Positions 19,805 to 50,579 of a stretch of DNA of 64,000 nucleotides are shown piece by piece (position 1 is the first letter of the stretch; each line of letters starts with the position of its first letter). Under the pieces are notes generated by a model. The model was not told the DNA's origin. It saw only the letters and a program-made list of their open reading frames with translations, and ran no database searches. This DNA comes from Bythopirellula sp. (GTDB taxonomy: Bacteria > Planctomycetota > Planctomycetia > Pirellulales > Lacipirellulaceae). The DNA is taken from assembly GCA_965216565.1 (NCBI GenBank), contig OZ244170.1, positions 224,001-288,000 of the forward strand. The letters are read 5' to 3'. Both the position numbers and the translations under genes were made by a program.

Positions 19805-19811
19805 GAACATC

Positions 19812-23386: not shown

Positions 23387-23444
23387 TAGCCGAGGCGGGC
23401 CTCGAACCCCCACGAAGGTTCCCCTTCACTGGATTTTAAGTCCA
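23387..23444 (-). pseudogene. Displaced, decayed 3' half of tRNA-Leu(UAA): outer att site of the island array
   Basis: 58-bp homologue of 50494-50551 with a different variable arm and two T-arm changes. Confidence 0.9.
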
Positions 23445-23768
23445 CGAATTTGGCATTGCGCTTACGTGGAACACACAAGGCGTTTATGCATCAACTTCCT
23501 TTTTTTGATGGCTTTCAGCGTTTCAGCGTGGCAAATGGATTGCTCCTGCCATGAATATGTATTGCACACATTGTTCCAATTGTGTTCCAAGAGTCAATCT
23601 GTTCCACGGCCTACGGTAGCAAGATGGGTCAGACCTTTTGCATGTTTATCCTATCGAACGATGTATTTGACGCAAACTAGCTGCTTCGGCATAAACACTT
23701 TGGCAGGTGAACTGAACGCGTTAGTCAGAGTGCATTTCGCTGCTTGGATGGGCGTCACCCGAGCGAAT
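23445..23768. repeat. Conserved island left end R1 (copy A) with TGTTCCA repeats
   Basis: Homologous to 31604-31928. TGTTCCA at 23572, 23583 and 23600; inverted TGGAACA at 23467. Confidence 0.9.
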
Positions 23769-23921
23769 TAGAGCTGCGAGAAAAAGGACTTCGAGCCCCC
23801 TAAGAAACAAGATTAGCAAAGTTTGCAAAATAGGCTTTCCAAGAGCACGGAGACCAATTCCACCGCTATTATTTAATGTAACGGGTTGAATTGCATGCCG
23901 CTTGTCGCAAGCATGGAATGA

Positions 23922-25697
23922 ATGTGGTCCTCCCGTCTGTTTTGGAAACTGTTTCTCACCTATGCCGGGCTTGTTCTGATCGCTCTTAGTATCTGTGTCG
24001 CCATTGTGTCGGGGTGGCAGGAAGAGCAATTGGTTGAACAAGTCCGTCGACGGCTGCATGACTCTGCAGCCCTGTTGCGTGACGACTTAGGCAGTCGCTT
24101 GGTTGCAGGCCGCAGTGAAGCTCTGCAGCAGAAAGTACGAAATCTCGGTGAACAGACGCAAACTCGCTTTACTATGGTAACCAGGGAGGGACTTGTACTG
24201 GCCGACTCGGAGCAATTGGGACTAGCCGAAGTTGTCGAGATGGAGAATCATCGCAACCGAAAAGAATTCGTCTTGGCTTCCCGCTCAGGGGAAGGAGTCT
24301 CTCAGCGAAACAGCTCAACACTAGGTGTACCGTTCCTGTATTTCGCTCTGGCGGTTGAGCAAGACAATGAAATCATCGGCTACGTTCGGGCGGCACAATC
24401 GATGGCTTCGATTCAGGAAGAAGTCAGCTCAATCCGTCGGCTAATTTGGTCGGTTGGACTCCTGATTGGACTCTCGGGTCTTGCCACTACCTATTGGCTC
24501 ACGCAACGGATCATAAGTCCTATTCAGGAGTTGACGGATGCAGCCGAGGACATTGCTACAGGAAATTACCCTGAGCGAATCGGAGTCCATTCCAGCGACG
24601 AGCTTGGTATCCTGGCACGTTCGTTTGAGAATATGAATAGTGAGTTGAAATCCAGAGAGAATCAGCTCAGGACCAGCTCCCACCGGCAGCAAGCAGTGCT
24701 AGGTGGAATGATCGAGGGGGTATTAGCTGTCGATAGCCGCCAAAAGGTTCTATTTGCTAATGCGGCAGCGGGAAAAGCACTTTCCTTTCAGCCCGATCAA
24801 ATTGAAGGGCATGCTCTACTGGAAGTTGTTCGCAGCCATGAATTGCGAGAGATTGTAGAGCAGACTCTCAGCTCCCGTGAACTTTGTCAGGGCGAACTTG
24901 CCTGGCAAGCGGACTCGATACGTACGCTCAAGATTCACGCCACCCCGCTTCCTGGCGAACCTTGTCCGGGCGTTGTGCTGGTGTTGCATGATGTGACCGA
25001 GCTTAAACGCCTAGAATATCTTCGTCAGCAGTTTGTCGCGAATGTATCTCACGAACTCAAAACGCCGCTTAGCTCGATCAAAGCCTACACAGAAACACTG
25101 CTTAGCGGAGCACTTGAGGACAAGAGCAATGCACCCCGGTTCTTGCGCCAAATCGACGATCAGGCAGATCGGCTGCACGACCTCATCCTCGACATGCTGA
25201 GCCTTGCTCGGATCGAATCTGGAAATGCCACTCTAGAACTAATTAACGTACCTCTGCAGCGGGTCGTTACGACGAGTCTAGCGGACTATGAAGCACGAAG
25301 CAGATCGGCTCAGATTTCATTGAATCATCAGTCCGATTGCGATTCTCTCGAAGTACGTGTCGACGAAGAATCGTTACAACAGATTATGAGCAATTTGATC
25401 GACAATGCCATTAAATATACGCCCTCGGGGGGGACCATCTCAGTCTGGAGCCACCAGGAAGCAGGCATGGCAGTAATCGAAGTCTCGGACACGGGCATCG
25501 GGATTGCCCCGGAGCACCAGGAGAGGCTTTTCGAGAGATTCTACCGCGTCGATAAAGCCCGCTCTCGCGAGATGGGAGGCACAGGCTTGGGCCTGGCAAT
25601 TGTCAAGCACCTGTGCCAGGCAATGGGGGGAAGCGTGTCAGTCGAGAGCCAGTTAGGCAGGGGAAGCACATTTCGAGTGCGAATTCCCCTCGCTTAA
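23922..25697 (+). CDS. phoR: Phosphate regulon sensor histidine kinase (HAMP-PAS-HisKA-HATPase)
   Basis: MENHRNRKE, FVANVSHELKTPL, NLIDNAIKY and FYRVDKARSREMGGTGLGL; next to the pst genes. Confidence 0.9.
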   Translation: MWSSRLFWKLFLTYAGLVLIALSICVAIVSGWQEEQLVEQVRRRLHDSAALLRDDLGSRLVAGRSEALQQKVRNLGEQTQTRFTMVTREGLVLADSEQLGLAEVVEMENHRNRKEFVLASRSGEGVSQRNSSTLGVPFLYFALAVEQDNEIIGYVRAAQSMASIQEEVSSIRRLIWSVGLLIGLSGLATTYWLTQRIISPIQELTDAAEDIATGNYPERIGVHSSDELGILARSFENMNSELKSRENQLRTSSHRQQAVLGGMIEGVLAVDSRQKVLFANAAAGKALSFQPDQIEGHALLEVVRSHELREIVEQTLSSRELCQGELAWQADSIRTLKIHATPLPGEPCPGVVLVLHDVTELKRLEYLRQQFVANVSHELKTPLSSIKAYTETLLSGALEDKSNAPRFLRQIDDQADRLHDLILDMLSLARIESGNATLELINVPLQRVVTTSLADYEARSRSAQISLNHQSDCDSLEVRVDEESLQQIMSNLIDNAIKYTPSGGTISVWSHQEAGMAVIEVSDTGIGIAPEHQERLFERFYRVDKARSREMGGTGLGLAIVKHLCQAMGGSVSVESQLGRGSTFRVRIPLA

Positions 25698-25710
25698 AAC
25701 CCGATTGCAC

Positions 25711-25755
25711 TTCTCATCCAATCTTCACACTCTCTTCATAGCCTCACGCTATAGT
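25711..25755 (+). promoter_or_regulatory. Pho box (three units, 11-bp period) plus -10 element for pstS
   Basis: TTCTCAT (25711), TCTTCAC (25722), TCTTCAT (25733); TATAGT at 25750, 10 bp after the last unit. Confidence 0.7.
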
Positions 25756-25812
25756 CTGAGTTGTGACCTGCCCAGACTATTCCGCCGTATATTTTTCAAC
25801 CGGATACTAGTT

Positions 25813-26787
25813 GTGACACCCAGTCGACATACAGTTTTGTCCACCGTTATTCTGAGCATTTGCCTTGTTCTCCAAGCAGGCTGCAGCAGTTCGAATTCGA
25901 CTCCTACTGGGGCTGGACTGACTGAGAGCGAGCTAGTTCTGTCCGGAGACGTTCGCATTCATGGATCGAGTACCGTTTTCCCAGTTTCGCAAGCGGTCGC
26001 CGAAGAATTCAAAGAGGTGGCACCAAGAGTTAAGGTTTCGGTTGGTTCCGCGGGTACGAGTGGCGGGATGAAAAAATTTGCGGCTGGTGAAATCGACATC
26101 TGCGATGCCTCACGAAGAATAAAAGACAGCGAAAAGGATAACTGTATTGCTTCTAATGTTGAGTTCATCGAGTTAACAGTCGCCGTGGATGGTCTCTCGG
26201 TTGTGGTAAATCCCAAAAACGATTGGGTAGACTGCCTAACCGTCGAGCAACTAAAGACTATTTGGCGGCCTGAAAGTGACGAAACAGTTGTGAACTGGAG
26301 CGATGTCGACCCTGAGTGGCCGGACGAACCTTTGAAACTGTACGGACCGGGCACCGATTCGGGAACCTTCGATTATTTCACCAAAGCCATTAATGGCGAA
26401 GAGCGGGCTAGTCGCGCAGACTATACCGCAAGCGAAAACGATAACCAGCTAGTTCGCGGAGTAATTTCCGATAAGGGTGCCCTTGGGTACTTTGGATATG
26501 CCTACTACGCTGAGAATAAAGATGCCTTGAAACTGTTGGCAGTCGACGGTGGAGAGGGTTGTGTTTCTCCTAATGACACGACTGTGCGTAGCGGCTCGTA
26601 CAAGCCTCTTTCCAGATCACTATTTATCTATGTAAGCAAGTCATCCTTAGAGCGACCGGAAATGGTTGCATTCGTGAAGTTTTACCTGGAGAACGTAGGC
26701 CGCTTGGCTGGCGATGTAGGGTATGTGCCCGTTTCCGATGAAGTGGCCAAGCAAAACAAAGTGCTTTTGCAAAAGGTTATGCAATAG
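25813..26787 (+). CDS. pstS: Phosphate ABC transporter substrate-binding lipoprotein
   Basis: Lipobox LQAGC, GSSTVFP, GTSGG and SGTFDYF. GTG 25813 chosen because the promoter lies inside the longer ORF. Confidence 0.93.
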   Translation: MTPSRHTVLSTVILSICLVLQAGCSSSNSTPTGAGLTESELVLSGDVRIHGSSTVFPVSQAVAEEFKEVAPRVKVSVGSAGTSGGMKKFAAGEIDICDASRRIKDSEKDNCIASNVEFIELTVAVDGLSVVVNPKNDWVDCLTVEQLKTIWRPESDETVVNWSDVDPEWPDEPLKLYGPGTDSGTFDYFTKAINGEERASRADYTASENDNQLVRGVISDKGALGYFGYAYYAENKDALKLLAVDGGEGCVSPNDTTVRSGSYKPLSRSLFIYVSKSSLERPEMVAFVKFYLENVGRLAGDVGYVPVSDEVAKQNKVLLQKVMQ

Positions 26788-26845
26788 ACACCAATTGGTG
26801 GTTTAGGTCTCTAATTTTGCAATAAGAACTAAGACTTCAAATGAC

Positions 26846-27781
26846 ATGTCTACAGCAGTTCCCACTCGAGACACACTAGCTGGCAAGTCAAAAGGCTTCG
26901 ATTTTCGTAAAGTCTTTGAGATTGCGATTCGCGGCATCCTAATAGCTTGTACTGCGATTTCGATTGTCACGACCATCGGGATCGTAGTCGTTCTATTCTT
27001 CGAATCATTCCAGTTCTTTCGCGAGGTTTCGATCTGGGAGTTCCTCACTGGCACCCGCTGGTCGCCACTGCTTAAGCCACAACACTTTGGCATCTTGCCT
27101 CTGTTTTGTGGCACTTTGCTCGTAGCAGGTGGATCGGCGATTCTAGCCATCCCTTTGGGCTTGGCCACGGCTATTTATTTGAGTGAGTACGCTTCACCTC
27201 TTGTACGTGAAGTCTTGAAACCTTCGATCGAAGTATTGGCAGGCATACCCTCAGTGGTCTACGGCTACCTGGCAGTTGTCTTTGTTTCGCCATTAGTTCG
27301 TGATGCCATTCCCTCAGCTGATCTATTTAATGCCGCGAATGCCTGTATTGTTGTCGGCATTATGATTTTGCCGATGGTCATCTCGCTGAGCGAAGACATT
27401 CTAAGATCAGTGCCACGTTCATTGCGCGAGGGTGCCTATGCCCTGGGAGCAACCAAGCTCGACGTAATCCTGAAAGTTGTCTTGCCCACCGCCATGTCGG
27501 GTATTATGGCAGCTTGTTTGCTGGCAATTGCCAGGGCGGTCGGAGAAACGATGGCGGTGACACTCGCAGCAGGGGCGACTCCCAACCTAACACTCAACCC
27601 GTTTGAAGGCATTCAAACCATGACTGCCTACATCGTGCAAGTGAGTTTAGGCGACACACCTGCCGGAACACTTGAATACCGCACAATCTTTGCGGTTGGT
27701 TTGGCTCTATTCGTTTCGACTTTCATACTCAACGTATTAGCTCGCTTAATATTAATGCGAGTTGAGGAGAAATACGAATGA
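26846..27781 (+). CDS. pstC: Phosphate ABC transporter permease
   Basis: [20 protein letters not shown] and [10 protein letters not shown]. Confidence 0.95.
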
Positions 27782-28656
27782 GTTTAGTGGAAAATAACAA
27801 TGGTCGCCCTTATGCAAAACTAGTTTCCATTGTCTTTGCTTGGCTATGCGCCGGAGCAGCTTGGCTTTGCGTTTCAATTCTGGTGCTCTTACTGTGGAAT
27901 GTAGTGAGCTACGGCTGGGACGCACTTAGTTGGGATTATGTTAACCGTTTTCCTTCAAGATTCGCTGAGAAGGCAGGTATTAAGCCTGCCCTGGTAGGCA
28001 GTATGTATTTAATTGGCTTGACGGCTTTGTTCGCGGTGCCAGTTGGTGTGGGGGCCGCCATATACCTTGAAGAATATACGCCCAAGAGCCGTTGGCGGAC
28101 ATTGGTGCAAATCAACATCGCTAACTTGGCCGGTGTGCCTTCGATTGTGTATGGGATCTTAGGACTTGGTATGTTCGTGCGGACCATGCAGCTCAACCGG
28201 AGCCTCATGGCCGGAGCCCTCACTTTGACGCTCGTTGTTCTGCCGATTGTCATCTTGGCGGCACAAGAATCGCTCCGAGCTGTGCCCAGTTCTATCCGCC
28301 AAGCATCCTATGCCCTTGGGGCAACGCGCTGGCAAACAGTTTGGCACCAGTTGCTTCCGGCTGCTTTGCCGGGCACGATGACAGGCGTAATTTTGGCGCT
28401 CTCTCGAGCCTTGGGCGAAGCTGCTCCCCTGGTCGCTATCGGCGCCGCAACTTATGTAACTTTCTTACCCGAAGATATCCTTAAAGATGAATTTACTGCG
28501 CTGCCTCTGCAAATATTCAGCTGGGCCAGCGAGCCACAACAGGGATTTCACAAGGTTGCTGCGGCGGGAATCGTTGTATTGCTTTTTGTACTGATTTGCA
28601 TGAATGCAATAGCCGTTGCATTGCGCTATCGATTTAGCAAGGCCAAACGTCCATGA
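27778..28656 (+). CDS. pstA: Phosphate ABC transporter permease
   Basis: [22 protein letters not shown] and SRALGEAAP. Confidence 0.95.
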
Positions 28657-28727
28657 CTTTCGACAATGCCTGTGCAGGCACTCCTTGAGCCCTAAATATT
28701 AAAGAACTAGTCCGTAGGTCAAATGTT

Positions 28728-29621
<894 letters not shown>

Positions 29622-29658
29622 CACGAACAATTCTTCCAAATAACCTACCAGCCTTCAC

Positions 29659-30342
29659 ATGTCCATACATCTTCATCGTGATCTCGAAGCCCTCGAGCAA
29701 GAATTGCTAGCGCAGTCGTCAATTGTTGAACAGATGGTCTATCGCTCGAGTCAGGCACTCGGAGAACTGCGCAGCGACCTCATCGAGCAACTTTATCGCG
29801 ATGAAGATACGGTCAACTCGCGAGAAGTCACAATCGAAGAAGAGTGCTTAAAAATTCTAGCACTCCATCAGCCAGTAGCCGTCGATCTGCGACGTGTGGC
29901 AACAGTCATGAAAATTAATGGCGACCTGGAACGCATCGCCGACTTAGCAGTGAATATTGGCGAACGTGCTCAAGTGTTGGTGCTCCACCCACATTTTCAG
30001 TTTCCTTATAAAATAGACCAGATGGTGGAAGCTGCAACATCGATGGTCCGGGACGCCCTGGATTCATTTGTTCATTTAGATGTCGATGCCGCCCGGAATG
30101 TATGTCAGCGCGACGATGTTGTCGACGATCTTAACCGCCAAGTGATTGAAGACCTCAAAGAGTTTCTTCAAAAAAACATCAGCGAAATCGAACCAGCACT
30201 TCAATTCTTCTCCGCTTCAAGACATATTGAGCGTATTGGAGATCACGCAACAAACATTGCCGAAGATGTCGTCTATCTTGTCGATGGTGAAATAGCCCGA
30301 CACTGGCAAAACGACACTTTCTACGGAGCGACAAACCGATAA
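29659..30342 (+). CDS. phoU: Phosphate signalling protein PhoU
   Basis: QPVAVDLR, DLERIADLAVNI and ERIGDHATNIAE. Confidence 0.95.
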   Translation: MSIHLHRDLEALEQELLAQSSIVEQMVYRSSQALGELRSDLIEQLYRDEDTVNSREVTIEEECLKILALHQPVAVDLRRVATVMKINGDLERIADLAVNIGERAQVLVLHPHFQFPYKIDQMVEAATSMVRDALDSFVHLDVDAARNVCQRDDVVDDLNRQVIEDLKEFLQKNISEIEPALQFFSASRHIERIGDHATNIAEDVVYLVDGEIARHWQNDTFYGATNR

Positions 30343-30345
30343 TTA

Positions 30346-31053
30346 ATGTCAAAACAAGTCAATATTTTAATTGTAGAAGACGATGCCTCACTAGCCGAGG
30401 TGCTGGACTACAACCTCAGCCAGGAAGGATACAAGACGCATATTGCCCGCGATGGACATCAAGGACTTCGTGAGACCCGTCTACGCTGCCCCAATCTCGT
30501 CATACTCGATTTAATGCTGCCAATGATCGATGGTCTAGAAGTCTGCAGACGATTACGTGCAGATCCAGCGACTCAAGACTTACTTGTGATGATGCTGACT
30601 GCCCGTTCCGAAGAGACGGACCAAATCGTTGGCTTTTCAGTTGGAGCTGACGACTATGTAACGAAACCTTTCAGCGTAAAAGTGCTCCTGCAAAGAATTA
30701 ACGCCCTCTTGCGTCGCAAGGAAAAAAGCAATTCAGATCGTGACGTTATCGTTAGCCAAGGTATTCTCATCGACCATCGGAACCATCGCGCGACTATAAG
30801 CGAAAAACCTGTAAATCTCACGCCGAGCGAGTTTGCGTTGTTGAGCACTCTTGTGCGCCAGCCAGGAAGGGTCTATTCTCGAAGCGAACTTATCGATGCT
30901 TCTCTCGGTGGCGATGCGATTGTGCTGGAACGCACCATCGATGTTCATATTCGTGCCCTACGCAAAAAAATGGGCGCCCACGCCGACTTACTTCAAACTG
31001 TACGCGGCATTGGCTACCGCCTGCGCGATCCGGCAGATGTAGGTGCGACGTAG
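30346..31053 (+). CDS. phoB: OmpR-family response regulator, PhoB
   Basis: LDLMLP, GADDYVTKPFS, RTIDVHIR and VRGIGY; follows phoU. Confidence 0.88.
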   Translation: MSKQVNILIVEDDASLAEVLDYNLSQEGYKTHIARDGHQGLRETRLRCPNLVILDLMLPMIDGLEVCRRLRADPATQDLLVMMLTARSEETDQIVGFSVGADDYVTKPFSVKVLLQRINALLRRKEKSNSDRDVIVSQGILIDHRNHRATISEKPVNLTPSEFALLSTLVRQPGRVYSRSELIDASLGGDAIVLERTIDVHIRALRKKMGAHADLLQTVRGIGYRLRDPADVGAT

Positions 31054-31216
31054 CAAACATTTCGATCAACCTTGTTCCTCGCACCACACAATGGGTGACC
31101 AGTTGTCCACGCGGTAATCCTTCAGTGCACGCTTGCAAATGCTAACTTGAAAGACCTAGTTGTTTCTCAATCATCGATAGAATTGTCACTTCTTCAAGTG
31201 AGATGGAGACTTGCAG

Positions 31217-31545
31217 CGCACAGGGGTTACCCCCTTCCAAGCGTCCGAACGCGATTACCCAAGACACGTTGGCTTCATTGTCCCGGGCACCCTAAGAAAC
31301 TCCGGGCTCACCATGATTTCCTCCAGCATCAAATCAAGCGATGCAGCTCAAGAGTCAACGCGGGTACCAGATGAGATTGATCTGTGTGTAATCAATCGAT
31401 TGGAAGAGTAGGCTCAGAGTCATGCGGCTGAGCCTATAATACGAACGAGGCATTTGCGTTTGATCTGCATGGCACTCTGGATTGATACTCCAGTGCGATA
31501 CAAAAATATGGACCGTCGTAAGTCCGCTGATTGCAAAACATTAAG
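31217..31545. repeat. Conserved island right end R2 (copy A)
   Basis: Matches 50167-50493; I count 6 substitutions over 31235-31545. Confidence 0.93.
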
Positions 31546-31603
31546 TAGCCGAGGCGGGACTCGAACCCGCACGGGGGTTACCCCCCACTGGATTTTAAGT
31601 CCA
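31546..31603 (-). repeat. Internal att core: exact copy of the tRNA-Leu(UAA) 3' half
   Basis: Identical to 50494-50551; identity stops at the anticodon stem. Confidence 0.95.
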
Positions 31604-31928
31604 CGAATCTGGCATTTCACTTACGTGGAACGTACAAGGCGATTGTGCATTAACGTCTTCATTTCTAATGGATTCCGGCGTTTCTGCGTGGCAATTGGAT
31701 TTCTTTTGCCATGAACTTGTATTGCCTACATTGTTCCAATTGTGTTCCAAGAGTCAATCTGTTCCACGGCCTACGGTAGCAAGATGGGTCAGACCTCTTG
31801 CATGCCTATTCTATCGAACGATTTAGTTGACGCAAACTAGCTGCTTCGGCATAAACGCTTTGGCAGTGGAACCGAACGCGTTAGTCAGAGTGCATTTCGC
31901 TGCTTGGAAGGGCGTCACCCACGCGAAT
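31604..31928. repeat. Conserved island left end R1 (copy B)
   Basis: Homologous to 23445-23768; TGTTCCA at 31732, 31743 and 31760. Confidence 0.9.
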
Positions 31929-32329
31929 GTGATGTGCGCACTTTTTGACTTCGGTGGGGGAAGGCCCAAGCGCCCAACGGAATATATTAAGACGCTTGGG
32001 TGTGGATCACTTTACCAAGACTCGGCTTGGCTTGCGTGCCGAATTTAATTCAACAGTCTTCTTGAGATTATAACTTGATTTACCGTCGGCCCAACTCACC
32101 ACCTACAACTAGGAGCCCAATCAACAAGAGCAACCGGAAACCCTTTATTGGATAAAACATGGAATTGCCCTCCACTATCGGTAGGGCTGCGCTTACTCAA
32201 TCTACAAATGATTCATAGTTCATTGGATTTCAGTTAAACTATCAGCGGGCTTCGATTGGCACGAGGCTTCTGCTCGGACCAGCCCAACAATTAAATTGCT
32301 AGAGTTTCAAAGGTTCCATAGAATCGCCA

Positions 32330-33745
32330 CTATGGTAGCTGAATCGGCTCGAACCACAGCTTGCCTTGAAATTTCTCCTCATCCGATTCATGTGATACGG
32401 TAAATAATTGCTCTAGCTCATGTCTGCCTGAGTTTGGATGCCATAGTCCTTTGTTAGCTAGCCGAACTGCATACTCCACACGATTGTTAAGCTTCTCATC
32501 TGGGTCTGGCAAATGCAGGAATAGCCTATAGCCGCCGACTGGCATTGTCTTTGGAATGCCTAACGAGAAACTAATAACAATGGGCTGACCGGGCAGCCAT
32601 TGCTTTGGGTTCACGTTAAGCTTGGTTCGGAATTCAGTGCCTTCTTCCGCGTTGACTGCAATCAGGAATACATCACGAGGATTAATTAATGCAGCCCAAC
32701 CTGAATTGCGTAGCGTTATCGAAATCGATAAGCCTTGATTTGCTCTAGCATCAAGACTGCATCGGCTATGCAATAGCTCTAGACGATAGCCAAGCCGTCG
32801 ATCGAGTTCATTGAAAAAACCATTTTTACGCCAACTAGATATGACATCGGGATGGTAGCCCAAATTCAGATAAGTCCAATGGAGCCTAGACAACTCTTTT
32901 CGCGCGACCTTTACCGAAGTGTATTCGCTAACTTTGCAGGTCTCACCTCCCATCGGTACAAATCGAGATTCCAGGGCAAGTAACTGTTTTTCCTTTTGAA
33001 TGCGAGACTTCTCATAAGTTCCCATATCAGTTTCGTTGGCCAAGAAACAATCATTGTGGTAGCCAATTCTGGCTTGAGCCGTATTAGTGAATGGTTTCAG
33101 AGGTTGCTGAGAATCAACCACATAGCGTTTCTGCATAGGTGTGCGGACCTGAATGGAGCGGTTTGATGGTAGAGCTCCCAACAACCGAGTAGCTAGCTTT
33201 TTGATTGAATGAGCTTCAGCTAGGCCATTCGAAGAACTGTGGAGTTCTCCCCAAGCACCAATAAATCCCATTTGGAAGACGGAGATAACATCGGCGTTGG
33301 CTTGCAGCAGCGGTTCCAATTGGTCGACGTGCCGCATGATCGACTTCATGGGAGCATCAGGCTCACCAATTCTTGAGCTATAAGCAAATCGAAGAATGCA
33401 CTTACATCCTGCCCGTCTGATGGTCGCTAAATCCTCGCTTATGAGATCTAGCTGGATGTTGCTAAGCTCCTTGTCTCGAAACTTTGTAAGGTAATAGAAC
33501 CGGAGAACGAGTGTGATGTGGTCTTCCCGCAACTCACGGAGTTTCTCCAGCGAAAGTGGCTCTCCCTCTGAATGTGCTGTGAGTTGGACGTAGAACCCTC
33601 TATCAGGATTAGCAAGGACAGCAGTGCTCGGCTGATAGGTAACGTTAGAGACTGCTGCCCGGGACAATCTAGCCCCAATATTGGAATAGAACATCACGAG
33701 CAGGATGGCGATGCTCACGCAGACTTGTGTCCGAAATTTAGTCAT
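32330..33745 (-). CDS. DUF4874/DUF4832 putative glycoside hydrolase, secreted
   Basis: NPDRGFY, ILRFAY, GFIGAWGELH, HNDCFLA, GGETC and RRLGYR. Start 33745 or 33793. Confidence 0.8.
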   Translation of the reverse strand: MTKFRTQVCVSIAILLVMFYSNIGARLSRAAVSNVTYQPSTAVLANPDRGFYVQLTAHSEGEPLSLEKLRELREDHITLVLRFYYLTKFRDKELSNIQLDLISEDLATIRRAGCKCILRFAYSSRIGEPDAPMKSIMRHVDQLEPLLQANADVISVFQMGFIGAWGELHSSSNGLAEAHSIKKLATRLLGALPSNRSIQVRTPMQKRYVVDSQQPLKPFTNTAQARIGYHNDCFLANETDMGTYEKSRIQKEKQLLALESRFVPMGGETCKVSEYTSVKVARKELSRLHWTYLNLGYHPDVISSWRKNGFFNELDRRLGYRLELLHSRCSLDARANQGLSISITLRNSGWAALINPRDVFLIAVNAEEGTEFRTKLNVNPKQWLPGQPIVISFSLGIPKTMPVGGYRLFLHLPDPDEKLNNRVEYAVRLANKGLWHPNSGRHELEQLFTVSHESDEEKFQGKLWFEPIQLP

Positions 33746-33803
33746 AAAATCACGAGAGCGAGCCCTAGTTTCAAAATTCGGGTTGTTAAACACGGCTATC
33801 CAG

Positions 33804-41900: not shown

Positions 41901-41962
41901 TAGACTTTTCCTCGCCAGAGTTTCACATTCCAGATCGGGATGACGTAGTTAGCACAACTCAC

Positions 41963-43126
41963 ATGAAAAAACAGAGGCTATCTAGGTTCATGGGTCGCGA
42001 ATGGAGCACATGCCTCGCATTTGCTCTTGCTGTATTATTTCTAGTAGATAATGCATCTGCTGATTTGGACGTCCTGGTACCTGCCTACTTCTATCCCGTC
42101 AACAACAGCCCCTGGGACGATCTGAACGACGCTGCATCCCAGGTTGAAATTACGGCGATCATGAACCCTGGAAGTGGCCCCGGGAATTCTCAGGATACTA
42201 ACTACGTGAATGCAGTCGACAGCCTTCGCTCGGCTGGAGGGCTAGTAATTGGTTATGTTCACACGTCGTTTGGCACACGGGATCTGAATACGGTGCTTAG
42301 CGAAATCGATGACTACGACAATTGGTACAACATTGATGGGATCTTTGTCGACGAAATGGCAAATAGCGGTCCAGCCGAAAGACTGAATTACTATCGAGAC
42401 ATCTACAACCACGTCAAATCCATTGACCCCAATTGGACGGTCGTCGGTAACCCTGGCACAGACACTCTCGAGCAGTATCTTACTTGGCCCACGGCCGATC
42501 AATTTGTGATATTTGAAGACTTCGGCTCCGCTTACGCCGGTGATACTACTCCAAGTTGGGTGTCCGATTACGAGCGCACTCAATTTGCGCATCTCATCCA
42601 CAGTGAGTCTTCTAATGTAACAATGCAAAGCAATTTAGAATTGGCCGTCACTCGCAACGCCGGTTCGGTCTACATTACCAACGATGTATTGAACAACCCT
42701 TGGGATACATTGCCTTCCTATTGGCAAGCACAAATCGATGCGATCGAGTTGTTCAACAACTCTATTCTAGATGCAGATTTCAATGAAAATGGTACTGTGG
42801 ATAACTTAGATCTAGCCCTCTGGAGCAATGGATATGGGATTTCTAATGACGCAAGCAAATATCAGGGGGATGCGAACGGTGACGGCGTAGTCGATGGAAG
42901 AGACTTCTTGCAGTGGCAACAAGACTACGGAGAAACAGCTCTTTTTGCTGGACACTCAGCGAGTGTGGGAAACCAAGCCAGCGCACAAAGCCTGCCAGAA
43001 CCAAATTGTGCGCAGTTACTAGCTCTCAGTGTGTTCATTTTTAGCATTGTTCTCAGGAGTACTCCTGCGAGTTCTAAACGTGAAGTAGATTTTCGCACCT
43101 CTAATGAGGGCAGACTTCACCAATGA
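41963..43126 (+). CDS. Spherulin-4 family / GH135 alpha-1,4-N-acetylgalactosaminidase-like, PEP-CTERM anchored
   Basis: LVPAYFYP, IMNPGSGPG, GYVHT, IDGIFVDE, NPGT, VIFE and YITND; LPEP. Confidence 0.85.
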   Translation: MKKQRLSRFMGREWSTCLAFALAVLFLVDNASADLDVLVPAYFYPVNNSPWDDLNDAASQVEITAIMNPGSGPGNSQDTNYVNAVDSLRSAGGLVIGYVHTSFGTRDLNTVLSEIDDYDNWYNIDGIFVDEMANSGPAERLNYYRDIYNHVKSIDPNWTVVGNPGTDTLEQYLTWPTADQFVIFEDFGSAYAGDTTPSWVSDYERTQFAHLIHSESSNVTMQSNLELAVTRNAGSVYITNDVLNNPWDTLPSYWQAQIDAIELFNNSILDADFNENGTVDNLDLALWSNGYGISNDASKYQGDANGDGVVDGRDFLQWQQDYGETALFAGHSASVGNQASAQSLPEPNCAQLLALSVFIFSIVLRSTPASSKREVDFRTSNEGRLHQ

Positions 43127-44145
43127 ATGCCATACGTGTTGTGTTCCCCCGTTTGTTGTTTCGAATACTAGCCTTGGTACGATCAATATTTGTTGCTGTT
43201 TGCATAGTTGTTGTTCTTTCAAAATCAGCAATTACAGCACAGAATTCTTTTCTAGACGTTGAAAGTTGGGGATATCAACTCACCGGTTATGACAAACAGA
43301 GTTTCGACCAGCTTGTTAGAGCTCCGTTGGATTTACTCGTAATTGACTTAGCCCGCGATGGAAATGAAGACTTTTTCTCGGCTGCCGACATTCGCTCGTT
43401 AAAGTCTCAAGGGAAATTTGTTCTTGCCTATTTTGAAATCGGTGCCATCGAACAATATCGCCCCGAGTGGCCGGCAGTGCCTGCTGAGCTGAAAGCAGGC
43501 CCGGTAGATGGCTGGCCTAAAGAGCAATATGTGAAGTACTGGGATCCGCGCTGGTGGCCCATCGTTCGCGGCAGAATAGATCGTTCGCTCGAAGCTAAAT
43601 TCGACGGCGTATTCCTTGACCTAATCACCGCTTATGACGAGATCCCGTTGAGCGTTCCACCTAAGGAAGAACGGGCAACACGCATGGTTGATCTGCTAGT
43701 TCGTATTTCTCGGTATGCTCGTCAGAAAAACAGCGGATTCAAGATCGTTGCTCAAAACTGTCCGGAACTTGCAACCTGGTCATTTTGGACACCCCGTACA
43801 AATCACGACTATCTGAATGCTATTGATGGCATTGCACTGGAAAGTCCTTTCTACCTAGCTCATGACAAGCCTTGTGATGCATCTTGGTGCGAGGAGAATC
43901 GAAGAAATGCTAAAACTATCAAGGAACACGGCAAACTGCTCCTTGGCGTTGACTATGCAAAAAAGCAGTCCGCAATAGAGAATTCTTATTCCATTCAAAT
44001 CCAAGAGGGATTCGTTCCATTTATTGGAGAACGAAACCTCGATGGTTTCTCTAATGGGTTTTTAGATATTGCACAGTCCCGATCAGTAACTACTCGCGCT
44101 GTTGGTGGTAAGTCTTCCAGTAGCTCCTTAGAAACCGCTAAATGA
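43123..44145 (+). CDS. GH114-like endo-alpha-1,4-polygalactosaminidase (TM1410/MJ1477 type)
   Basis: WGYQL, AYFEIGAIEQYR, WPKE, FDGVFLD, QN and DGIALE. Confidence 0.82.
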   Translation: MNAIRVVFPRLLFRILALVRSIFVAVCIVVVLSKSAITAQNSFLDVESWGYQLTGYDKQSFDQLVRAPLDLLVIDLARDGNEDFFSAADIRSLKSQGKFVLAYFEIGAIEQYRPEWPAVPAELKAGPVDGWPKEQYVKYWDPRWWPIVRGRIDRSLEAKFDGVFLDLITAYDEIPLSVPPKEERATRMVDLLVRISRYARQKNSGFKIVAQNCPELATWSFWTPRTNHDYLNAIDGIALESPFYLAHDKPCDASWCEENRRNAKTIKEHGKLLLGVDYAKKQSAIENSYSIQIQEGFVPFIGERNLDGFSNGFLDIAQSRSVTTRAVGGKSSSSSLETAK

Positions 44146-44324
44146 AAATAGAATAAGATGCTGGTAAGAAACAACTTCAATCGCAGATTGCAACGAGAGA
44201 CTTCTTTCTTAGCTAACTATGAATAATACTAGTGTGTCCTAAGTACAATCAGTAGTTTGTCCATTTATTCAAATGAATGAGAGATTAGCCGAGGCGAAGA
44301 TAAGCAACATGAGGAAGCATTCAT

Positions 44325-45368
44325 ATGGTTAAGGTAGGTATTGCTGGAATTGGTTTCATGGGAATGGTGCATTACCTGTCTTACCAAAAGTTGCGGGGCG
44401 TCCAGGTCGTTGCCATCTGTGAAAAGGACAAGGAACGATTAAGCGGTGACTGGCGGAGTATAAAGGGAAACTTTGGTCCAGCGGGAAGAAAAACAGATCT
44501 CTCTAATGTCAAACGATATTCGTCACTCAATGACCTTATAGCTGATCCAGATATCGATCTAATCGACATCACTCTGCCGCCTTCGCTACATGCAGATACT
44601 GCCGTAAATGCACTGCGATCTGGCAAGCATGTATTTTGCGAAAAGCCGATGGCACTCAACCCTCGTGACTGCAAACGCATGAGCACTGAGGCGAAAAAGG
44701 CTGGCAAGTTGCTCATGATTGGTCACGTCCTGCCTTTCTTTCCGGAATATGCCTGGGCACTCAATGAGCAGAAGCGCAATAGGTTTGGCCGTCTCTTGGG
44801 AGGAAGTTTCAAGAGAGTCATCTCCGATCCTACCTGGCTCAAACACTACTGGTCACCGAGTAAGGTCGGTGGCCCCATGCTCGACTTGCACATTCACGAT
44901 GCACACTTTATCCGCCTATTCTTTGGCAACCCTCAGAAGGTGACAAGTCGAGGTCGGCTTCGGAGGGGCGTTGCTGAACACTGGCATTCTCAGTTCGACT
45001 ATGGGGTTAAGGGGCCATTGGTTCAGGCCACAAGCGGTACGATTTCGCAACAAGGCCGAGGATTTGATCACGCGTTTGAAATTCACTTTGAAAAAGCAAC
45101 CCTAATGTTTGAATTTGCAACAATCGGCAAAGAGGCCGGCTATCTTTGTCCACCAACGATACTAACAAGTGATGGCAAAGTGAAGCGACCGGCGTTGGGA
45201 TCGGGTGACCCTATGTTAGTGTTCCAATCCGAACTTAAAGAAGTAGCTAAGTGTATTCGTAACAATACAGACTCTGACGTTCTTAACAGTGGGCTCGCAG
45301 CCGATGCGGTTCAGATTTGTCAGAAACAGACGGAGAGTTTGCTTAAGAGGCGTTTTATCACGATTTGA
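44325..45368 (+). CDS. Gfo/Idh/MocA NAD(P)-dependent oxidoreductase
   Basis: GIGFMG, HVFCEKP and DLHIHD. Confidence 0.88.
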   Translation: MVKVGIAGIGFMGMVHYLSYQKLRGVQVVAICEKDKERLSGDWRSIKGNFGPAGRKTDLSNVKRYSSLNDLIADPDIDLIDITLPPSLHADTAVNALRSGKHVFCEKPMALNPRDCKRMSTEAKKAGKLLMIGHVLPFFPEYAWALNEQKRNRFGRLLGGSFKRVISDPTWLKHYWSPSKVGGPMLDLHIHDAHFIRLFFGNPQKVTSRGRLRRGVAEHWHSQFDYGVKGPLVQATSGTISQQGRGFDHAFEIHFEKATLMFEFATIGKEAGYLCPPTILTSDGKVKRPALGSGDPMLVFQSELKEVAKCIRNNTDSDVLNSGLAADAVQICQKQTESLLKRRFITI

Positions 45369-45498
45369 ATGACATCGCGACAACCATGTGGACCAGATTA
45401 CTTCTTGCAAATTCGAAGAAGAATTTCTATTTGCACCAAACACCTGAACCGTTGACAGCGACTTTGGGAACCAAGTTTTTGGCACATTTTTCGCAGAG

Positions 45499-46923
45499 AT
45501 GAAAACTATGAATAATCATACTGGCAATGAAAACTCCGAATCCCTCGGCCGTCGCGAATTGCTTAAACTGCCTGCCCTCGGCGCTGGACTAGTGGCAGCA
45601 GGCGGTATTGCTGCTTTGGCCAAGGAGAATAATGGACGTGACTCCACCACGTTGCGACAACGAAAGATGCCCGCTCCACCTGCTCAACCTCTCTCATGCC
45701 CGCCGATCGATGAGATACGAATAGGGTTTGTGGGCGTCGGAGGCATGGGCACGAATCACGTACGTAATCTTGTTCAGGTACCTAATGCCGTCATCAAAGC
45801 AGTTTGTGATATCAGACCCGCTCATGCAGAACGGGCAAAACAGATTGTTACCGAGGCTGGGTTTCCTGAGCCGACTCTTTACACCAATGGTGAGCGCGAC
45901 TACGAGAGAATGTGCGCCGAAGAGGATCTCGATCTAGTTTTTACCGCAACTCCTTGGCGCTGGCATGTCCCAGTGTGTGTTGCAGCTATGGTCAATGGCA
46001 AGCACGCAGCTACGGAAGTCACTGCATCACTATCGATAGAAGGTTGTTGGGAGTTAGTAGAGACGGCCGAAAAGCAAGAGAAGCACTGCGTAATGATGGA
46101 GAATTGCAACTACGGACAGTGGGAAATGATGCTTCTGAACATGAGTAGGCAAGGTGTCCTTGGTGATATTCTGCACGCAGAATGCGGCTACCTGCATGAC
46201 TTGAGAGCAATCAAGTTTAGTGACGAGGGCGAAGGCTTATGGCGACGAGAATACTCTAAAACTCACAATTGCAATCTTTATCCCACCCATGGCCTCGGTC
46301 CGGTTGGGCAATGCATGGATATCAACCGAGGCGATCGCTTCGACTATGTGGTTTCAATGAGCAGTCCGTCGCGTGGATTACAGAATTGGGCAGAGGAACA
46401 CTTCCCCGCAGGGCATAACGTTCGTTCAGAAGAATACGAGCTGGGGGATGTGAATGTTAGTTTGATCAAAACTGCCAAAGGCCGGACCATTTACTTGAAC
46501 CACGACACGAATCTGCCACGGCCCTACAGTCGAATAAATATACTTCAAGGCACTAAGGGCATTTTCGAAGGATATCCAAACCGATGTCATGTAGAAGGGA
46601 TTAGCGAGCCTCATGAGTGGGAATCTGGAGAAAAGTTCCTTGCGGAGTATGAGCATCCGCTTTGGCAGAAGTTCAAAGACAAGAGCACAGGCGCTGCACA
46701 CGGGAACATGGACTATTTGGAATCCTATCGGCTCATTGAATGCTTGCACAATGGCTGGCCGACTGATATGAACGTCTATGATGCCGCTTCATTGAGTGCA
46801 GTTGTAGAGCTGACAAAACGATCGGTAGCCCAAGGAAGCAAGCCTATAGAATTCCCTGACTTCACCCGCGATCGATGGAAAACTTGGCAACCTGTAGAAA
46901 TAGAAGCACCGACTTCTGCTTAA
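45499..46923 (+). CDS. GH109 NAD+-dependent alpha-N-acetylgalactosaminidase-like, Tat-exported
   Basis: GRRELLK Tat motif; ATPWRWH, MMENCNY, YLHDL, YPTHGLGP, AHGNMD and FPDFTR. Confidence 0.88.
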   Translation: MKTMNNHTGNENSESLGRRELLKLPALGAGLVAAGGIAALAKENNGRDSTTLRQRKMPAPPAQPLSCPPIDEIRIGFVGVGGMGTNHVRNLVQVPNAVIKAVCDIRPAHAERAKQIVTEAGFPEPTLYTNGERDYERMCAEEDLDLVFTATPWRWHVPVCVAAMVNGKHAATEVTASLSIEGCWELVETAEKQEKHCVMMENCNYGQWEMMLLNMSRQGVLGDILHAECGYLHDLRAIKFSDEGEGLWRREYSKTHNCNLYPTHGLGPVGQCMDINRGDRFDYVVSMSSPSRGLQNWAEEHFPAGHNVRSEEYELGDVNVSLIKTAKGRTIYLNHDTNLPRPYSRINILQGTKGIFEGYPNRCHVEGISEPHEWESGEKFLAEYEHPLWQKFKDKSTGAAHGNMDYLESYRLIECLHNGWPTDMNVYDAASLSAVVELTKRSVAQGSKPIEFPDFTRDRWKTWQPVEIEAPTSA

Positions 46924-47051
46924 AAACACACTTCTTCGTCCTAAGAAACGATTCGAATTGAGATAAGATCGAGATCTATGCATGGATCATCTGATGCAGA
47001 TAGGTTCCGTGTCTAGCATTATTAGAGACTTTGTTTTGGGGAATTGAAGCC

Positions 47052-47909
47052 ATGATTAAATCGATTAGTTACTGGTCAATGAAAGATGGCCTTGCTGGGA
47101 CTCATCCCATTAGCGATGCCTTGCAGCAGGCAAAGTCCTCGGGATTCGAGGGATTGGAACTTTGCATTGGGGTCGATGGGGTTCTCACCCCAGCTACAAG
47201 TCAAGAAGAATGCGAGGAGATCCGTGACCAGATTGAGCAAAGTGGATTGATCGTTGAAACTCTCGCTAGTGGCATGAGTTGGGCATTCAACCCCACTAGT
47301 GATGATCCCGATGTGCGACAGCAGGCAATTGCGATCCACCAAGCAGCGTTGCGGCGAGCAGCTTGGCTCGGTTGTCAAGCGATGTTGTTTGTGCCGGGTG
47401 TGGTTTGTAGTCCGATCGTCCCCGACGAGCGTATTAGATATGATGTCGCAGTTGATCGAGCCCGAGATGCTGTAAGCCAGCTATTGGAAGTCGCCGAAGA
47501 AGTCCAGGTAGATCTATGCGTTGAAAATGTATGGAACGGGTTGTTCTATTCTCCCCTGGAACTCTCAACATTTATTCGATCATTCAAGACTGATCGTCTG
47601 GGTGTGTATTTCGACGTTGGCAATGTCTTGGGGTATCACCAATACCCTCCACATTGGGTTGAATTACTAGGGACACTCATCAAACGGGTACATGTCAAAG
47701 ATTTCCAAGACAAGTTTGATTGGATTGGCGAATACTCCTTCTGTGGGCTCGGGCAAGGCGATGTTCCTTGGGAGGCAACGATGCAAAGCCTGCAACAGAT
47801 TGGATACGATAGCACGGTTGTTGCGGAAATGCTTCCCTACAGTGAAGGGCTGCTTGAAGAGACAAGCCAAGCATTGGATAAGATTCTAGGCATCGAGTCT
47901 GTCGCTTAG
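47052..47909 (+). CDS. Sugar phosphate isomerase/epimerase (xylose-isomerase-like TIM barrel)
   Basis: ENVWN, YFDVGN, VHVKD and AE metal ligands. Confidence 0.85.
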   Translation: MIKSISYWSMKDGLAGTHPISDALQQAKSSGFEGLELCIGVDGVLTPATSQEECEEIRDQIEQSGLIVETLASGMSWAFNPTSDDPDVRQQAIAIHQAALRRAAWLGCQAMLFVPGVVCSPIVPDERIRYDVAVDRARDAVSQLLEVAEEVQVDLCVENVWNGLFYSPLELSTFIRSFKTDRLGVYFDVGNVLGYHQYPPHWVELLGTLIKRVHVKDFQDKFDWIGEYSFCGLGQGDVPWEATMQSLQQIGYDSTVVAEMLPYSEGLLEETSQALDKILGIESVA

Positions 47910-47952
47910 AGTTATTCGGCAATCAATAAGAAAAGGATGCGACGGCTTAAGC

Positions 47953-49767
47953 ATGACTCTAACAGCAGTTGACTGGTGCATCCTGATTGGCTTTTTCGTC
48001 TTCGCCCTTGGGATTGGGATTGCCGTATCTAGGCAGGCGGGGAAAAGCTCGAGTGAGTTCTTTCTCTCGGGAAGGAACATGCCATGGTGGTTGCTCGGGT
48101 TCTCCATGGTGGCCACCACCTTTTCAACCGATACACCAAATCTGGTGACTGATCTCGTTAGGGAAAAAGGAGTAGCTGGAAATTGGGCTTGGTGGTCCTT
48201 CCTGATTACTGGAGTTGTTACTGTCTTTTTCTACGCTAAGCTTTGGCGTCGCTCGGGTGTATTGACAGATCTTGAACTCTACAAGATCCGCTACAGTGGC
48301 AGGGCGGCCTCCTTCCTGCGTGGATTTCGAGCACTCTATCTAGGTGTTTTCATCAACATCTTGGTCATGGCGACTGTCACCGTGGCAGCAATCAAGATTG
48401 GTGAGACGATGTTGGGCTGGAACCGATATCAGTCTGTCGTGACTGCTATGGCGGTAACAGTAGTATTCAGCTCGATGGGCGGATTCAAAGGAGTCATTCT
48501 GACTGACTTTGTGTTGTTCATACTTTCGATGGTTGGTTCTTTTGCTGCGGCATATTTTGCGTTGCAACATGAAAGTGTCGGTGGACTTCTTGGTTTATTG
48601 AATCATCCGAATGTGTCGGACAAGCTGGATCTGTTTCCTGATTTGACGCCGGATTCCTCCGCTGAATGGTCTATCTTGTTAAGCCTGCTATTGATACCTC
48701 TACTAGTTCAATGGTGGAGCGCCTGGTATCCAGGTTCCGAACCCGGTGGCGGTGGCTACCTCGCCCAACGGATGCTCGCTGCAAAAGATGAGCGACATTC
48801 GGTGCGGGCCATCTTCTTTTTCCAGGTGGCCCATTATGCGATCCGCCCTTGGCCTTGGATTCTAGTCGCTCTGTGCTCGCTTGCTGTGTTCCCTACGATC
48901 GACGACATTAAAGCGGCCTTTCCCAATGCAGAGAACGTAGCAAATGACAGCGGCTATTCAGCTATGCTAACTTTCCTGCCACCAGGGTGGTTTGGGCTAG
49001 TGCTTACGTCGCTGGTAGCTGCATACATGAGCACAATATCGACGCAACTCAACTGGGGGGCTTCCTATGTTGTCAATGATTTCTGGAAACAGTATGTGGA
49101 GCCAGAGGCCAGTGAAAGAAGATTAGTGTGGGTGGGTCGTCTTTCAACAGTGGTAATGATGGTTCTCGCTGCCGTCGTTGCATTCCAGATTGAGAAAGCA
49201 AGTGATGCCTTTAGTTTGCTAGTGGCATTGGGAGCAGGTACCGGGGGAGTATTGTTGGCAAGGTGGTTTTGGTGGCGAGTTAATGCCATGAGCGAGATTG
49301 TGGCAATTGTCGCTGCAGCCGTTGTTTCGTTGACATTCCAATTCACAGACTTCGGAACTGCTCTCACTGACAAGCTTGGTATTTGGTCGATTGCGGTCCA
49401 AGTCGCAATTGTTACATCCTTATGGCTAATAGCAACTTTTGCGACTAGCCCCACGGAATTCTCAGTCCTTAAGACCTTCATAGAGCAATGCAACCCGGGG
49501 GGACCTGGGTGGCGGTATGTGTTCGAAGAAGCAGCTCGCCGAGGTGAGTCGATATCGCCAAGTGCGCAAGGAATCAACTTTCCACTCAGCATTCTCGCTA
49601 CTGTACTAGGCTGCATACTGGTTTACGGCACACTTTTCGCAACAGGGTATTTCCTGTACGGAAGAGAAAGCTTGGGGCTGTTGTGGCTCGGAATCACACT
49701 CGTTTCTGGAGTTGGACTCAAGCTTGTTTGGATCAGAATAGCCACGAGCGATTCGTTAAAAATGTAA
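47953..49767 (+). CDS. Sodium:solute symporter
   Basis: FFLSGRNMPWW, SMVATTF, AQRMLAAK and AAYMSTIST. Confidence 0.92.
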   Translation: MTLTAVDWCILIGFFVFALGIGIAVSRQAGKSSSEFFLSGRNMPWWLLGFSMVATTFSTDTPNLVTDLVREKGVAGNWAWWSFLITGVVTVFFYAKLWRRSGVLTDLELYKIRYSGRAASFLRGFRALYLGVFINILVMATVTVAAIKIGETMLGWNRYQSVVTAMAVTVVFSSMGGFKGVILTDFVLFILSMVGSFAAAYFALQHESVGGLLGLLNHPNVSDKLDLFPDLTPDSSAEWSILLSLLLIPLLVQWWSAWYPGSEPGGGGYLAQRMLAAKDERHSVRAIFFFQVAHYAIRPWPWILVALCSLAVFPTIDDIKAAFPNAENVANDSGYSAMLTFLPPGWFGLVLTSLVAAYMSTISTQLNWGASYVVNDFWKQYVEPEASERRLVWVGRLSTVVMMVLAAVVAFQIEKASDAFSLLVALGAGTGGVLLARWFWWRVNAMSEIVAIVAAAVVSLTFQFTDFGTALTDKLGIWSIAVQVAIVTSLWLIATFATSPTEFSVLKTFIEQCNPGGPGWRYVFEEAARRGESISPSAQGINFPLSILATVLGCILVYGTLFATGYFLYGRESLGLLWLGITLVSGVGLKLVWIRIATSDSLKM

Positions 49768-50166
49768 TCAGCGAATAAGTAGAGGATACTGTTTCTACTT
49801 GAAACTCTTTTAAACGTTTTATTACCAGGAGCTTTACACCAACGAGACTGAGTCTTCTGCCTTAAGATTTACTCCTTAGTCGCGAATACCATAGGTCACT
49901 GGTGTGGGTGACATCTCCAGGTCTATATGTGATCTAATCGCATGCCTTCACTAGAGGCAGGCGGAAGCTCAGGTTCTGTTAGACTAGCCCGGCATATAGT
50001 TGTCCGTGGAAGTTAGCGAAATCCTAACTTATATGTCACAAGGAATACTTGCTACAGCTGACATGCCTGAAAGTGAACCCCCGAGTGGTGCGACAACTTT
50101 CTATTCTTGGGCCACTGACGAGCATGCGTTAACTCACACCTCTGCGTCGAACAAAGAGGCTTTTGA

Positions 50167-50493
50167 CGCACGGGTTGCCCCATTCCAAGCGTCCAAACGC
50201 GATTACCCAAGACACGTTGGCTTCATTGTCCCGGGCACCCTACGAAACTCCGGGCTCACCATGATTTCCTCCAGCATCAAATCAAGCGATGCAGCTCAAG
50301 AGTCAACGCGGGTACCAGATGAGATTGATCTGTGTGTAATCAATCGATTGGAAGAGTAGGCTCATGGTCATGCGGTTGAGCCTATAATACGAACGAGGCA
50401 TTTGCGTTTGATCTGCATGGCACTCTGGATTGATACTCCAGTGCGATACAAAAATATGGACCGTCGTAAGTCCGCTGTTTGCAAAACATTAAG
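50167..50493. repeat. Conserved island right end R2 (copy B)
   Basis: Near-identical to 31217-31545. Confidence 0.93.
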
Positions 50494-50579
50494 TAGCCGA
50501 GGCGGGACTCGAACCCGCACGGGGGTTACCCCCCACTGGATTTTAAGTCCAGAGCGTCTGCCAATTCCGCCACTCGGCC
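50494..50579 (-). tRNA. tRNA-Leu(UAA), CCA not encoded
   Basis: Cloverleaf: GGCCGAG/CTCGGCT acceptor, CTGGA-CTTAAAA-TCCAG anticodon arm, long variable arm, GCGGG-TTCGAGT-CCCGC T arm. Confidence 0.96.

Follow-up and report, generated by a model that had tools for sequence, protein, structure and literature searches.

How cargo enters genomic islands is mostly unexplained, and a locus in Bythopirellula sp. (Planctomycetota; Lacipirellulaceae) raises this question with the borders of the exchanged pathways visible to the base. Within the 64,000 nucleotides analyzed here (contig OZ244170.1, positions 224,001 to 288,000; hereafter the window), two tandem units lie at the tRNA-Leu(UAA) gene, each between the same two end sequences, R1 and R2. 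How did a single backbone come to be caught with two cargos, one of them the genome's only high-affinity phosphate (Pho) system and the other a glycan gene cluster? The rows of palindromes that bracket the cargo look like candidate swap points for whole pathways among planctomycetes. On balance, we lean toward a two-tier mobile system, in which a backbone with attachment (att) ends and without an integrase has its cargo exchanged at the inner palindromes.

Both units repeat the order core, R1, cargo, and R2, as an earlier note on this DNA had described (Table 1). The core is a copy of the 3' half of tRNA-Leu that measures 60 bp (not 58 bp, as first noted) and is present three times, the third copy spanning 50492-50551 at the tRNA gene; the spacings between cores, 8159 and 18948 bp, are the lengths of the two units. 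The core+R1 copies are 88% identical over 385 nt (23385-23768 versus 31544-31928; E = 5e-137), and the R2+core copies are 97.7% identical over 383 nt (31221-31603 versus 50169-50551). The variable-arm stem of the distal core (core') is a different allele in which pairing is still kept. Between R1a and R1b there are 33 differences within the first 192 bp (the core counted in) and 13 within the last 192. Because the R1 copies differ most in their core-side half and the R2 copies at only 9 of 323 positions, the pattern of divergence agrees with a recent backbone to which an older distal end has been joined, and with two recent backbones that would differ only in cargo. An assembly artefact is unlikely because R1a/R1b and core'/core differ from each other and because approximately 99% identical strain contigs span core'-R1a-Pho-R2. 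A Pfam scan of the 22 open reading frames (ORFs) in cargo and gaps (23466-50359) identified no integrase, relaxase, replicase, or transposase, in agreement with the earlier note, and a TBLASTN search of 23301-50600 with 20 mobility proteins from relatives revealed no mobility remnant or integrase pseudogene, the only matches at E<0.05 being the tRNA core read as protein. We also considered R1 and R2 themselves as integrase pseudogenes and rejected this, as six-frame translation, read-through BLASTP, and TBLASTN yielded nothing. R2 contains a hairpin (31408-31433 and 50356-50381); its stem is conserved between the two copies, and three of the nine positions at which they differ fall within or next to its loop.

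The sequence common to the R1 and R2 copies stops at 25-bp palindromes, a single motif that lies in inverted orientation around each cargo. Units have the arm consensus CGCTTGGGTG, with 10-bp near-symmetric arms and a 5-bp centre. A weight matrix finds four high-scoring copies in this genome, all of them cargo ends, at 38-45 bits versus a shuffle maximum of 13.5, the scored sites being also the training set. In relatives, units form arrays of up to 8 with a 45-46-bp period and in both orientations (85 of 102 gaps measure 45 or 46 bp in a search window of 43-49), and left and right unit halves are shuffled between loci. A sequence-only model matched 31 of 120 genomes of the family at E<=0.01, many near the threshold, and 11 of 120 at E<1e-7, six of which are outside the training set; it also matched 3 of 151 genomes of the order at E<=1e-4, and a strict pattern gave matches at ten metagenome loci. 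This genome contains five model matches and about 10 arrays, 6 of which, by our own list, lie inside tRNA islands that make up approximately 5% of the genome. Of the 119 other genomes of the family, none contained R2 and 7 gave R1 matches, with the arm part in 1 and the remainder being short pieces, mostly of the inner motif; neither has a further match within the 5.21-Mb single-contig genome. The family of cassettes sharing R1 and R2 that the earlier note proposed is therefore not borne out, and the same ends around other cargo were found in relatives as the palindromic motif and not as R1 or R2 themselves. The recurring element is the palindrome arrays at the inner ends, which the earlier note did not mention.

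The units are distinct from the 26-bp dif-like repeat of this genome at ~2.514 Mb. As a protein remnant (the 'VTPFQA' frame) the motif was rejected, with stops in that frame at most sites, and so was a structured RNA, which had no Rfam family and gave inconsistent single-strand folds; only the tRNA scored above an Rfam gathering threshold. Single queries, and so weak ones, returned no array match in viral contigs (one long pattern) or in PLSDB, and of the 35 pattern matches that a contig database gave outside planctomycetes, most had low scores and were treated as chance. We found no description of these arrays in the literature covered, main texts outside subscription papers. IS110 and IS4/Tn5-type transposase genes directly adjoin some arrays (L128:689-1963; L125:214-2018; L231:3697-5139), possibly as a target preference.

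Arrays in relatives also lie at the borders of recognizable modules. For example, outward-facing pairs enclose genes that form coherent pathways, namely nitrate/nitrite assimilation (genome G115), hydrogenase maturation (G014), metal efflux (G061), and GH32 glycan use. Further pairs enclose a sulfatase/porin set (G116), a sigma/kinase/autotransporter set (G009), and a 66-kb glycan region (G012). In each of the 8 pairs examined, one end is of the ACGCC type and the other of the GCCCC type. The outer arms match within pairs (65/80 versus 48.9 permuted, p=3e-4; 57/70 versus 43.3 after removing one pair from this genome) and the inner arms do not, with p values that overstate the effect because the 8 pairs were our own selection among the model matches, include two of this genome, and come in part from kin with arms in common. 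G012 carries two copies of a segment that includes an intI-like gene; they agree at every one of 3759 bp, starting 1 bp ahead of a GATGC centre and stopping 1 bp beyond a GGACC centre. The duplicated segment (G012:C1:2048253-2052133 and 4117389-4121269; L307, L306) is a small integron-like unit with two ~104-bp attC-like repeats, and more GGACC-GATGC junction arrays occur elsewhere in that genome. The genes flanking the inserts of G020 and G009 are adjacent in this genome, which thus has the two empty sites; the G009 insert also takes in one gene outside its unit pair. The array-bounded insert of G020 (L170:5002-16060; G020:C57) carries the housekeeping genes lepA and tex, and its lepA has 95% amino acid identity to that of this genome, which sits elsewhere.

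Integrase-bearing islands (L131, G020, G012, G061, G116, and the Arg and Met islands of this genome, G000) likewise carry arrays immediately inward of their att ends, and arrays bracket a ParA plus RPA-like Rep module and a resolvase module. The tRNA-Met island (G000:C1:1371737-1513774; 142 kb) encodes an integrase, an RPA-type Rep, a XerD-like recombinase, a methylase, and metal-efflux genes, with an array 650 bp inside its distal att and backbone genes common to the G116 element, which has other cargo. The tRNA-Arg(CCG) island (G000:C1:3309779-3346822; 37 kb) encodes an integrase and rhamnosidase cargo, with an array ~600 bp past the integrase.

The outer ends descend from att sites. Tyrosine integrases adjoin tRNA-Leu or its core copies in relatives, where the earlier note had suggested looking for them, and tRNA-Leu(UAA) is supported as an integration hotspot. 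Integrase-bearing elements occupy it in G020, G031, G027, G004, G016, and G017, that of G020 being a 37-kb element with an integrase, an RPA-type Rep, ParA, and TraD. The core-proximal ~170 bp of R1 is homologous to the distal (attR) arm of the G016 island (z=31), and the TTGGAAC repeats of R1, at -145/-134 from the core, have the same offsets in the attR arms of G016 and G031. Judged from these sequence features, R1 is a genuine attR arm. At the tRNA-proximal arm, loci of five relatives show this repeat pair again, at +61/+72, with the integrase start after it. R2 resembles the attL of relatives over its first ~30 nt only and has no +61/+72 pair; the attL-side arm looks truncated, and the internal junction may therefore not be a working attP. 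None of the 8 PF00589 matches in this genome is closely related to the Leu-site integrases (at best 30% over the C-terminal part, E 1e-7), no autonomous integrative and conjugative element (ICE) or integrative and mobilizable element (IME) adjoins the units, and a direct parent island of the backbone was not found among the relatives searched. Of the proposal that the R2-core-R1 junction equals an attP moved in trans, the R1 half holds, and neither a working attP nor a resident helper integrase is supported.

Other elements at this tRNA vary in form. A 2.1-kb island (L049:8798-10990; G008:C38) has an integrase 5' fragment without a long integrase ORF, one adhesive gene of ice-binding-like type, a partial unit, and an attR arm of another family. 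Integrases of a second family read toward the tRNA-Leu core, which itself encodes their C-terminus (L043:7654-8945; L054:5362-6770), and in G017 a 253-bp inverted repeat (89%; L056:5669-5920 and 9352-9604; G017:C159) surrounds an IS110 gene and an array and adjoins a split integrase and a tRNA-Leu core remnant.

The distribution of both cargos is patchy. Cargo 1 holds the only pstS/pstC/pstA/phoU set of the genome. Five relatives (G013, G012, G009, G008, and G018) carry pho at a common chromosomal locus without arrays; that locus has no pho in this genome, where the cassette copy is the sole one. The closest pho operon, in G020 (77% DNA identity), is array-flanked too, in a different setting. 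Cargo 2 is probably involved in galactosamine-glycan (amino-sugar) utilization, because GH114 enzymes are endo-galactosaminidases according to an excerpt of PMC12054363. To compare strains, we used contigs of three runs (X1, which is from another study, X2, and X3) over window positions 22000-34500 only. Contigs of X1, ~99% identical, cover 22000-23016, 23017-27290, and 27327-31571 at depth 8-9, and depth is zero at 32008-33675. This fits a strain that has the Pho unit without the glycan unit, a contig gap being no proof, and the glycan unit looks dispensable within the species. All that X3 gave was a pair of 151-nt pieces at the R2-core-R1b junction, and X2 is fragmentary, so that their gaps support no inference. 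R2 of the Pho-bearing X2 strain has 8 differences from R2a and 6 from R2b among 282 positions, too few to locate the crossover.

In the two-tier system that we favor, the att ends come from an ordinary tyrosine-integrase island family targeting tRNA-Leu, and the backbone, without its integrase and with a shortened attL arm, now stands twice in tandem. Each cargo is a module between two different 25-bp sites of the kind that forms the family-wide 45-46-bp-period arrays, with its borders at the site centres. A double crossover at the site centres, one per site type, would keep the backbone and swap the pathway, and the different centres would stop the two ends of one cargo from recombining together. 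A centre with an odd number of bases, readable as a 7-bp overlap, suits a tyrosine recombinase better than a serine recombinase, and the most likely catalyst would be a tyrosine recombinase. The second unit probably joined through a visiting integrase or through homologous recombination in the 383-bp R2+core repeat, and any activity at the present day is putative. A broader claim is tentative: Lacipirellulaceae-type planctomycetes may possess an undescribed natural cassette-exchange system, in which arrays split islands and plasmid-like elements into modules (att/integrase, Rep/ParA, resolvase, and cargo of up to 66 kb) that a putative dedicated recombinase swaps between matching site pairs, this locus being one empty backbone loaded with two pathways.

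Several results weigh against crossover at the arrays, in addition to the overstated p values. Enrichment of 43-49-bp chains in this genome is weak (6 versus 1-4 at control spacings). Some arrays stand alone, lie in direct orientation, or separate single genes, so that an array does not always mark the end of a cargo. In G001 and G014, the pho operons (78-86% amino acid identity) have no scored flanking arrays, and among the 21 of 120 genomes with relatives of the glycan cluster, an array was present in the fetched stretches of 1 of 8 (G004, beside araC). Neither of the two empty sites in this genome has an array, and a preexisting target is thus not demonstrated. The compared contigs (22000-34500) contained neither a joint junction nor a circle junction, the earlier note having foreseen circles of 8159, 18948, and 27107 bp. 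No recombinase is tied to the arrays, which lie within ~1.5 kb in 6 of 68 tyrosine-recombinase loci and 1 of 30 Y1 loci, and clustering of array neighbors returned att integrases and a Rep-like protein and no new enzyme. A XerD-like 327-amino-acid recombinase near one G116 array was set aside as a candidate, its 42% homolog in this genome having no array. Arrays between single large genes without known function and beside a sulfatase gene (G000:C1:2672109-2677900 and 1062652-1063015) lie away from the tRNA repeats found.

The locus could instead consist of nonautonomous cassettes that move by their att sites alone, as core-to-core circles acted on in trans by a Leu-site integrase, with the palindromes incidental. 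The tandem cores, the intact internal core, and the attR arm repeats kept in both R1 copies agree with this, as do the six relatives with integrase-bearing elements at tRNA-Leu, the G008 island without a long integrase ORF, and the conspecific strain with a Pho unit and zero depth on the start of the glycan unit. However, the missing +61/+72 pair in R2, the lack of a cognate integrase in the genome, and the absence of R2 from all 119 other genomes count against it, and it leaves unexplained how both cargos acquired the same ends, cut at palindromes. We consider this account unlikely. That the units are decayed islands, whose arrays are docking sites for a DNA-binding protein or repeats of the repetitive extragenic palindromic (REP) or bacterial interspersed mosaic element (BIME) kind that are frequent in mobile DNA, offering short homologies for RecA or phage-annealase exchange without a dedicated recombinase, strikes us as quite unlikely. 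Arrays that are mosaic, reach 8 units, and face both ways, their presence between single genes away from tRNAs, and the lack of an associated enzyme are what it would predict; two site types at the two ends in 8/8 pairs, a perfect duplication bounded at unit centres, and the placing of 6 of ~10 arrays in tRNA islands (~5% of the genome) are not, and there is neither a link to REP-associated tyrosine transposases (RAYTs) nor an Rfam match. The RAYT search gave one weak chain in 30 Y1 loci of five genomes (30 of 50 matches covered).

A transposon origin we regard as improbable. The cargos would then be nonautonomous transposons with multisite ends, either like the recombinase-in-trio (RIT) and Tn554 elements or like Tn3/Tn5053, inserted into the centre of a palindromic target, both having entered the same target in the att backbone. 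Left and right ends are distinct, with three sites each, and read GGG outside-in, and the outer arms covary as though from one target palindrome. Yet none of the 8 pairs has a target duplication, the flanks are inverted and not direct, and the loci examined contain no autonomous member with a transposase or recombinase trio between such ends. The borders of the G012 duplicate belong to further unit types (GATGC and GGACC), so that any unit can serve as a border.

Integrons, with their attC arrays, and shufflons place repeated sites between exchangeable gene units, as seen here. However, our units have no attC RYYYAAC/GTTRRRY core, the cargo comprises multiple operons in both orientations, and no IntI or Rci is adjacent here. 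DDE transposons (Tn3/Tn5053-like) differ in the target-site duplication that is missing at the 8 pairs. In Neisseria, dRS3 elements form mosaic arrays. The systems that follow are compared as excerpts of their reports describe them. REP, BIME, and REPIN (paired REP) sequences and GTAG and CGTC repeats, among which dRS3 is CGTC-1 (PMC3733652), resemble the units as short intergenic palindromes with 4-5-nt loops in mosaic clusters with linkers; the units differ in their few copies per genome, their position at island or module borders, the two site types per cargo, and the lack of a RAYT neighbor. RIT and Tn554-like tyrosine-recombinase transposons (PMC3414803, PMC5737581) likewise have palindromic or inverted-repeat ends and identical copies within one genome, whereas no recombinase pair or trio lies inside any array-bounded segment examined. 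The pdif (dif) modules of Acinetobacter plasmids (PMC9771954) also hold cargo between inversely oriented recombination-like sites and are shuffled among backbones, but the sites here are not XerC/XerD dif sites, which have two different arms and a 6-11-bp spacer, and they form 45-46-bp-period arrays around cargo of up to 66 kb.

For the outer layer, integrase-less tandem islands flanked by att sites are a described class, as shown by cis-mobilizable elements (CIMEs) and tandem accretion in Streptococcus (PMC7563491) and by tandem ssrA islands without an integration module in Dehalococcoides (PMC3146451), so this layout, of which the earlier note knew no description in planctomycetes, is of a known kind. 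The shared features are att flanks, metabolic cargo without integrase or transfer genes, tandem placement at the 3' end of one gene, and a decayed distal element. As in CIMEs, att direct repeats lie at a gene 3' end, without recombination, mobilization, or conjugation genes. Unlike in the CIMEs of that account, both neighbors here are without an integrase, no ICE or IME is adjacent, the backbones are near identical with cargo cut at the same inner palindromes, and one att arm looks truncated. Tycheposons of Prochlorococcus carry an integrase, an excisionase, and often replication genes (bioRxiv 10.1101/2020.12.28.424599). The likeness that the earlier note drew to them holds for the tRNA att site in a marine element and the nutrient cargo (phosphate or nitrate assimilation), but not for an integrase or hallmark genes, and the excerpted account of tycheposons does not mention inner palindrome arrays. 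The outer layer is thus of a known, CIME-like kind, and the inner palindrome layer is apparently undescribed.

Elsewhere in the window, kinase/cyclase-like, FHA-EAL, and MMPL genes (15971-23278, + strand) lie immediately left of the distal att and could be an older island, an ORF at 7379-9445 (- strand) encodes HEAT repeats and a pretoxin HINT domain, and the intergenic region 5082-5150 contains a 26-bp inverted repeat with a 17-nt loop.

Table 1. Features of the tRNA-Leu(UAA) locus, in window coordinates
Feature	Position	Strand	Remarks
Distal att core (core')	23385-23444	-	Diverged copy of tRNA-Leu 3' half, 88% identical
R1a	23445-23768		Predicted attR arm (~first 170 bp) and array remnant
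Tandem arm-type repeats, TTGGAAC x2, 11-bp period	23572-23590	-	In R1a, at -144/-133 from the core
Palindromic unit, 25 bp, ACGCC-type centre	23741-23765	-	Left end of Pho cargo; R1a/R1b identity stops 3 nt beyond
Cargo 1: phoR, pstS, pstC, pstA, pstB, phoU, phoB	23922-31053	+	
Palindromic unit, 25 bp, GCCCC-type centre (variant ACCCC)	31219-31243	+	Right end of Pho cargo; R2 identity starts inside
R2a	31221-31543		Array remnant, ~250 bp without known origin, then ~30 nt resembling attL of relatives; no arm pair
Internal att core	31544-31603	-	Identical to tRNA 3' half
R1b	31604-31928		Predicted attR arm (arm repeats 31732-31750) and array remnant
Three-unit array, 46-bp period (31901, 31947, 31993)	31901-32017	-	Left end of glycan cargo
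Cargo 2: two DUF4874/DUF4832 proteins, NagX, AraC, DUF1559, spherulin-4, GH114, Gfo/Idh/MocA, GH109, epimerase-like TIM barrel, sodium:solute symporter (SSS)	32330-49767		
Two-unit array (50122, 50167), outer unit GCCCC-type	50122-50191	+	Right end of glycan cargo
R2b	50169-50491		9 differences from R2a in 323 bp
tRNA-Leu(UAA), intact, anticodon TAA	50493-50579	-	Sole tRNA in window (ARAGORN); downstream of leuA, as in relatives
leuA	50748-52304	-	

If no dedicated recombinase works on these sites, what remains is a tandem of the CIME kind carrying a repeat family that is new to description. With the site consensus, the recombinase question becomes testable and the borders of islands can be predicted. 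If a dedicated recombinase does act at these sites, it might provide a new exchange tool for large cargo, and the arrays would represent a new route by which whole nutrient pathways move in marine planctomycetes.

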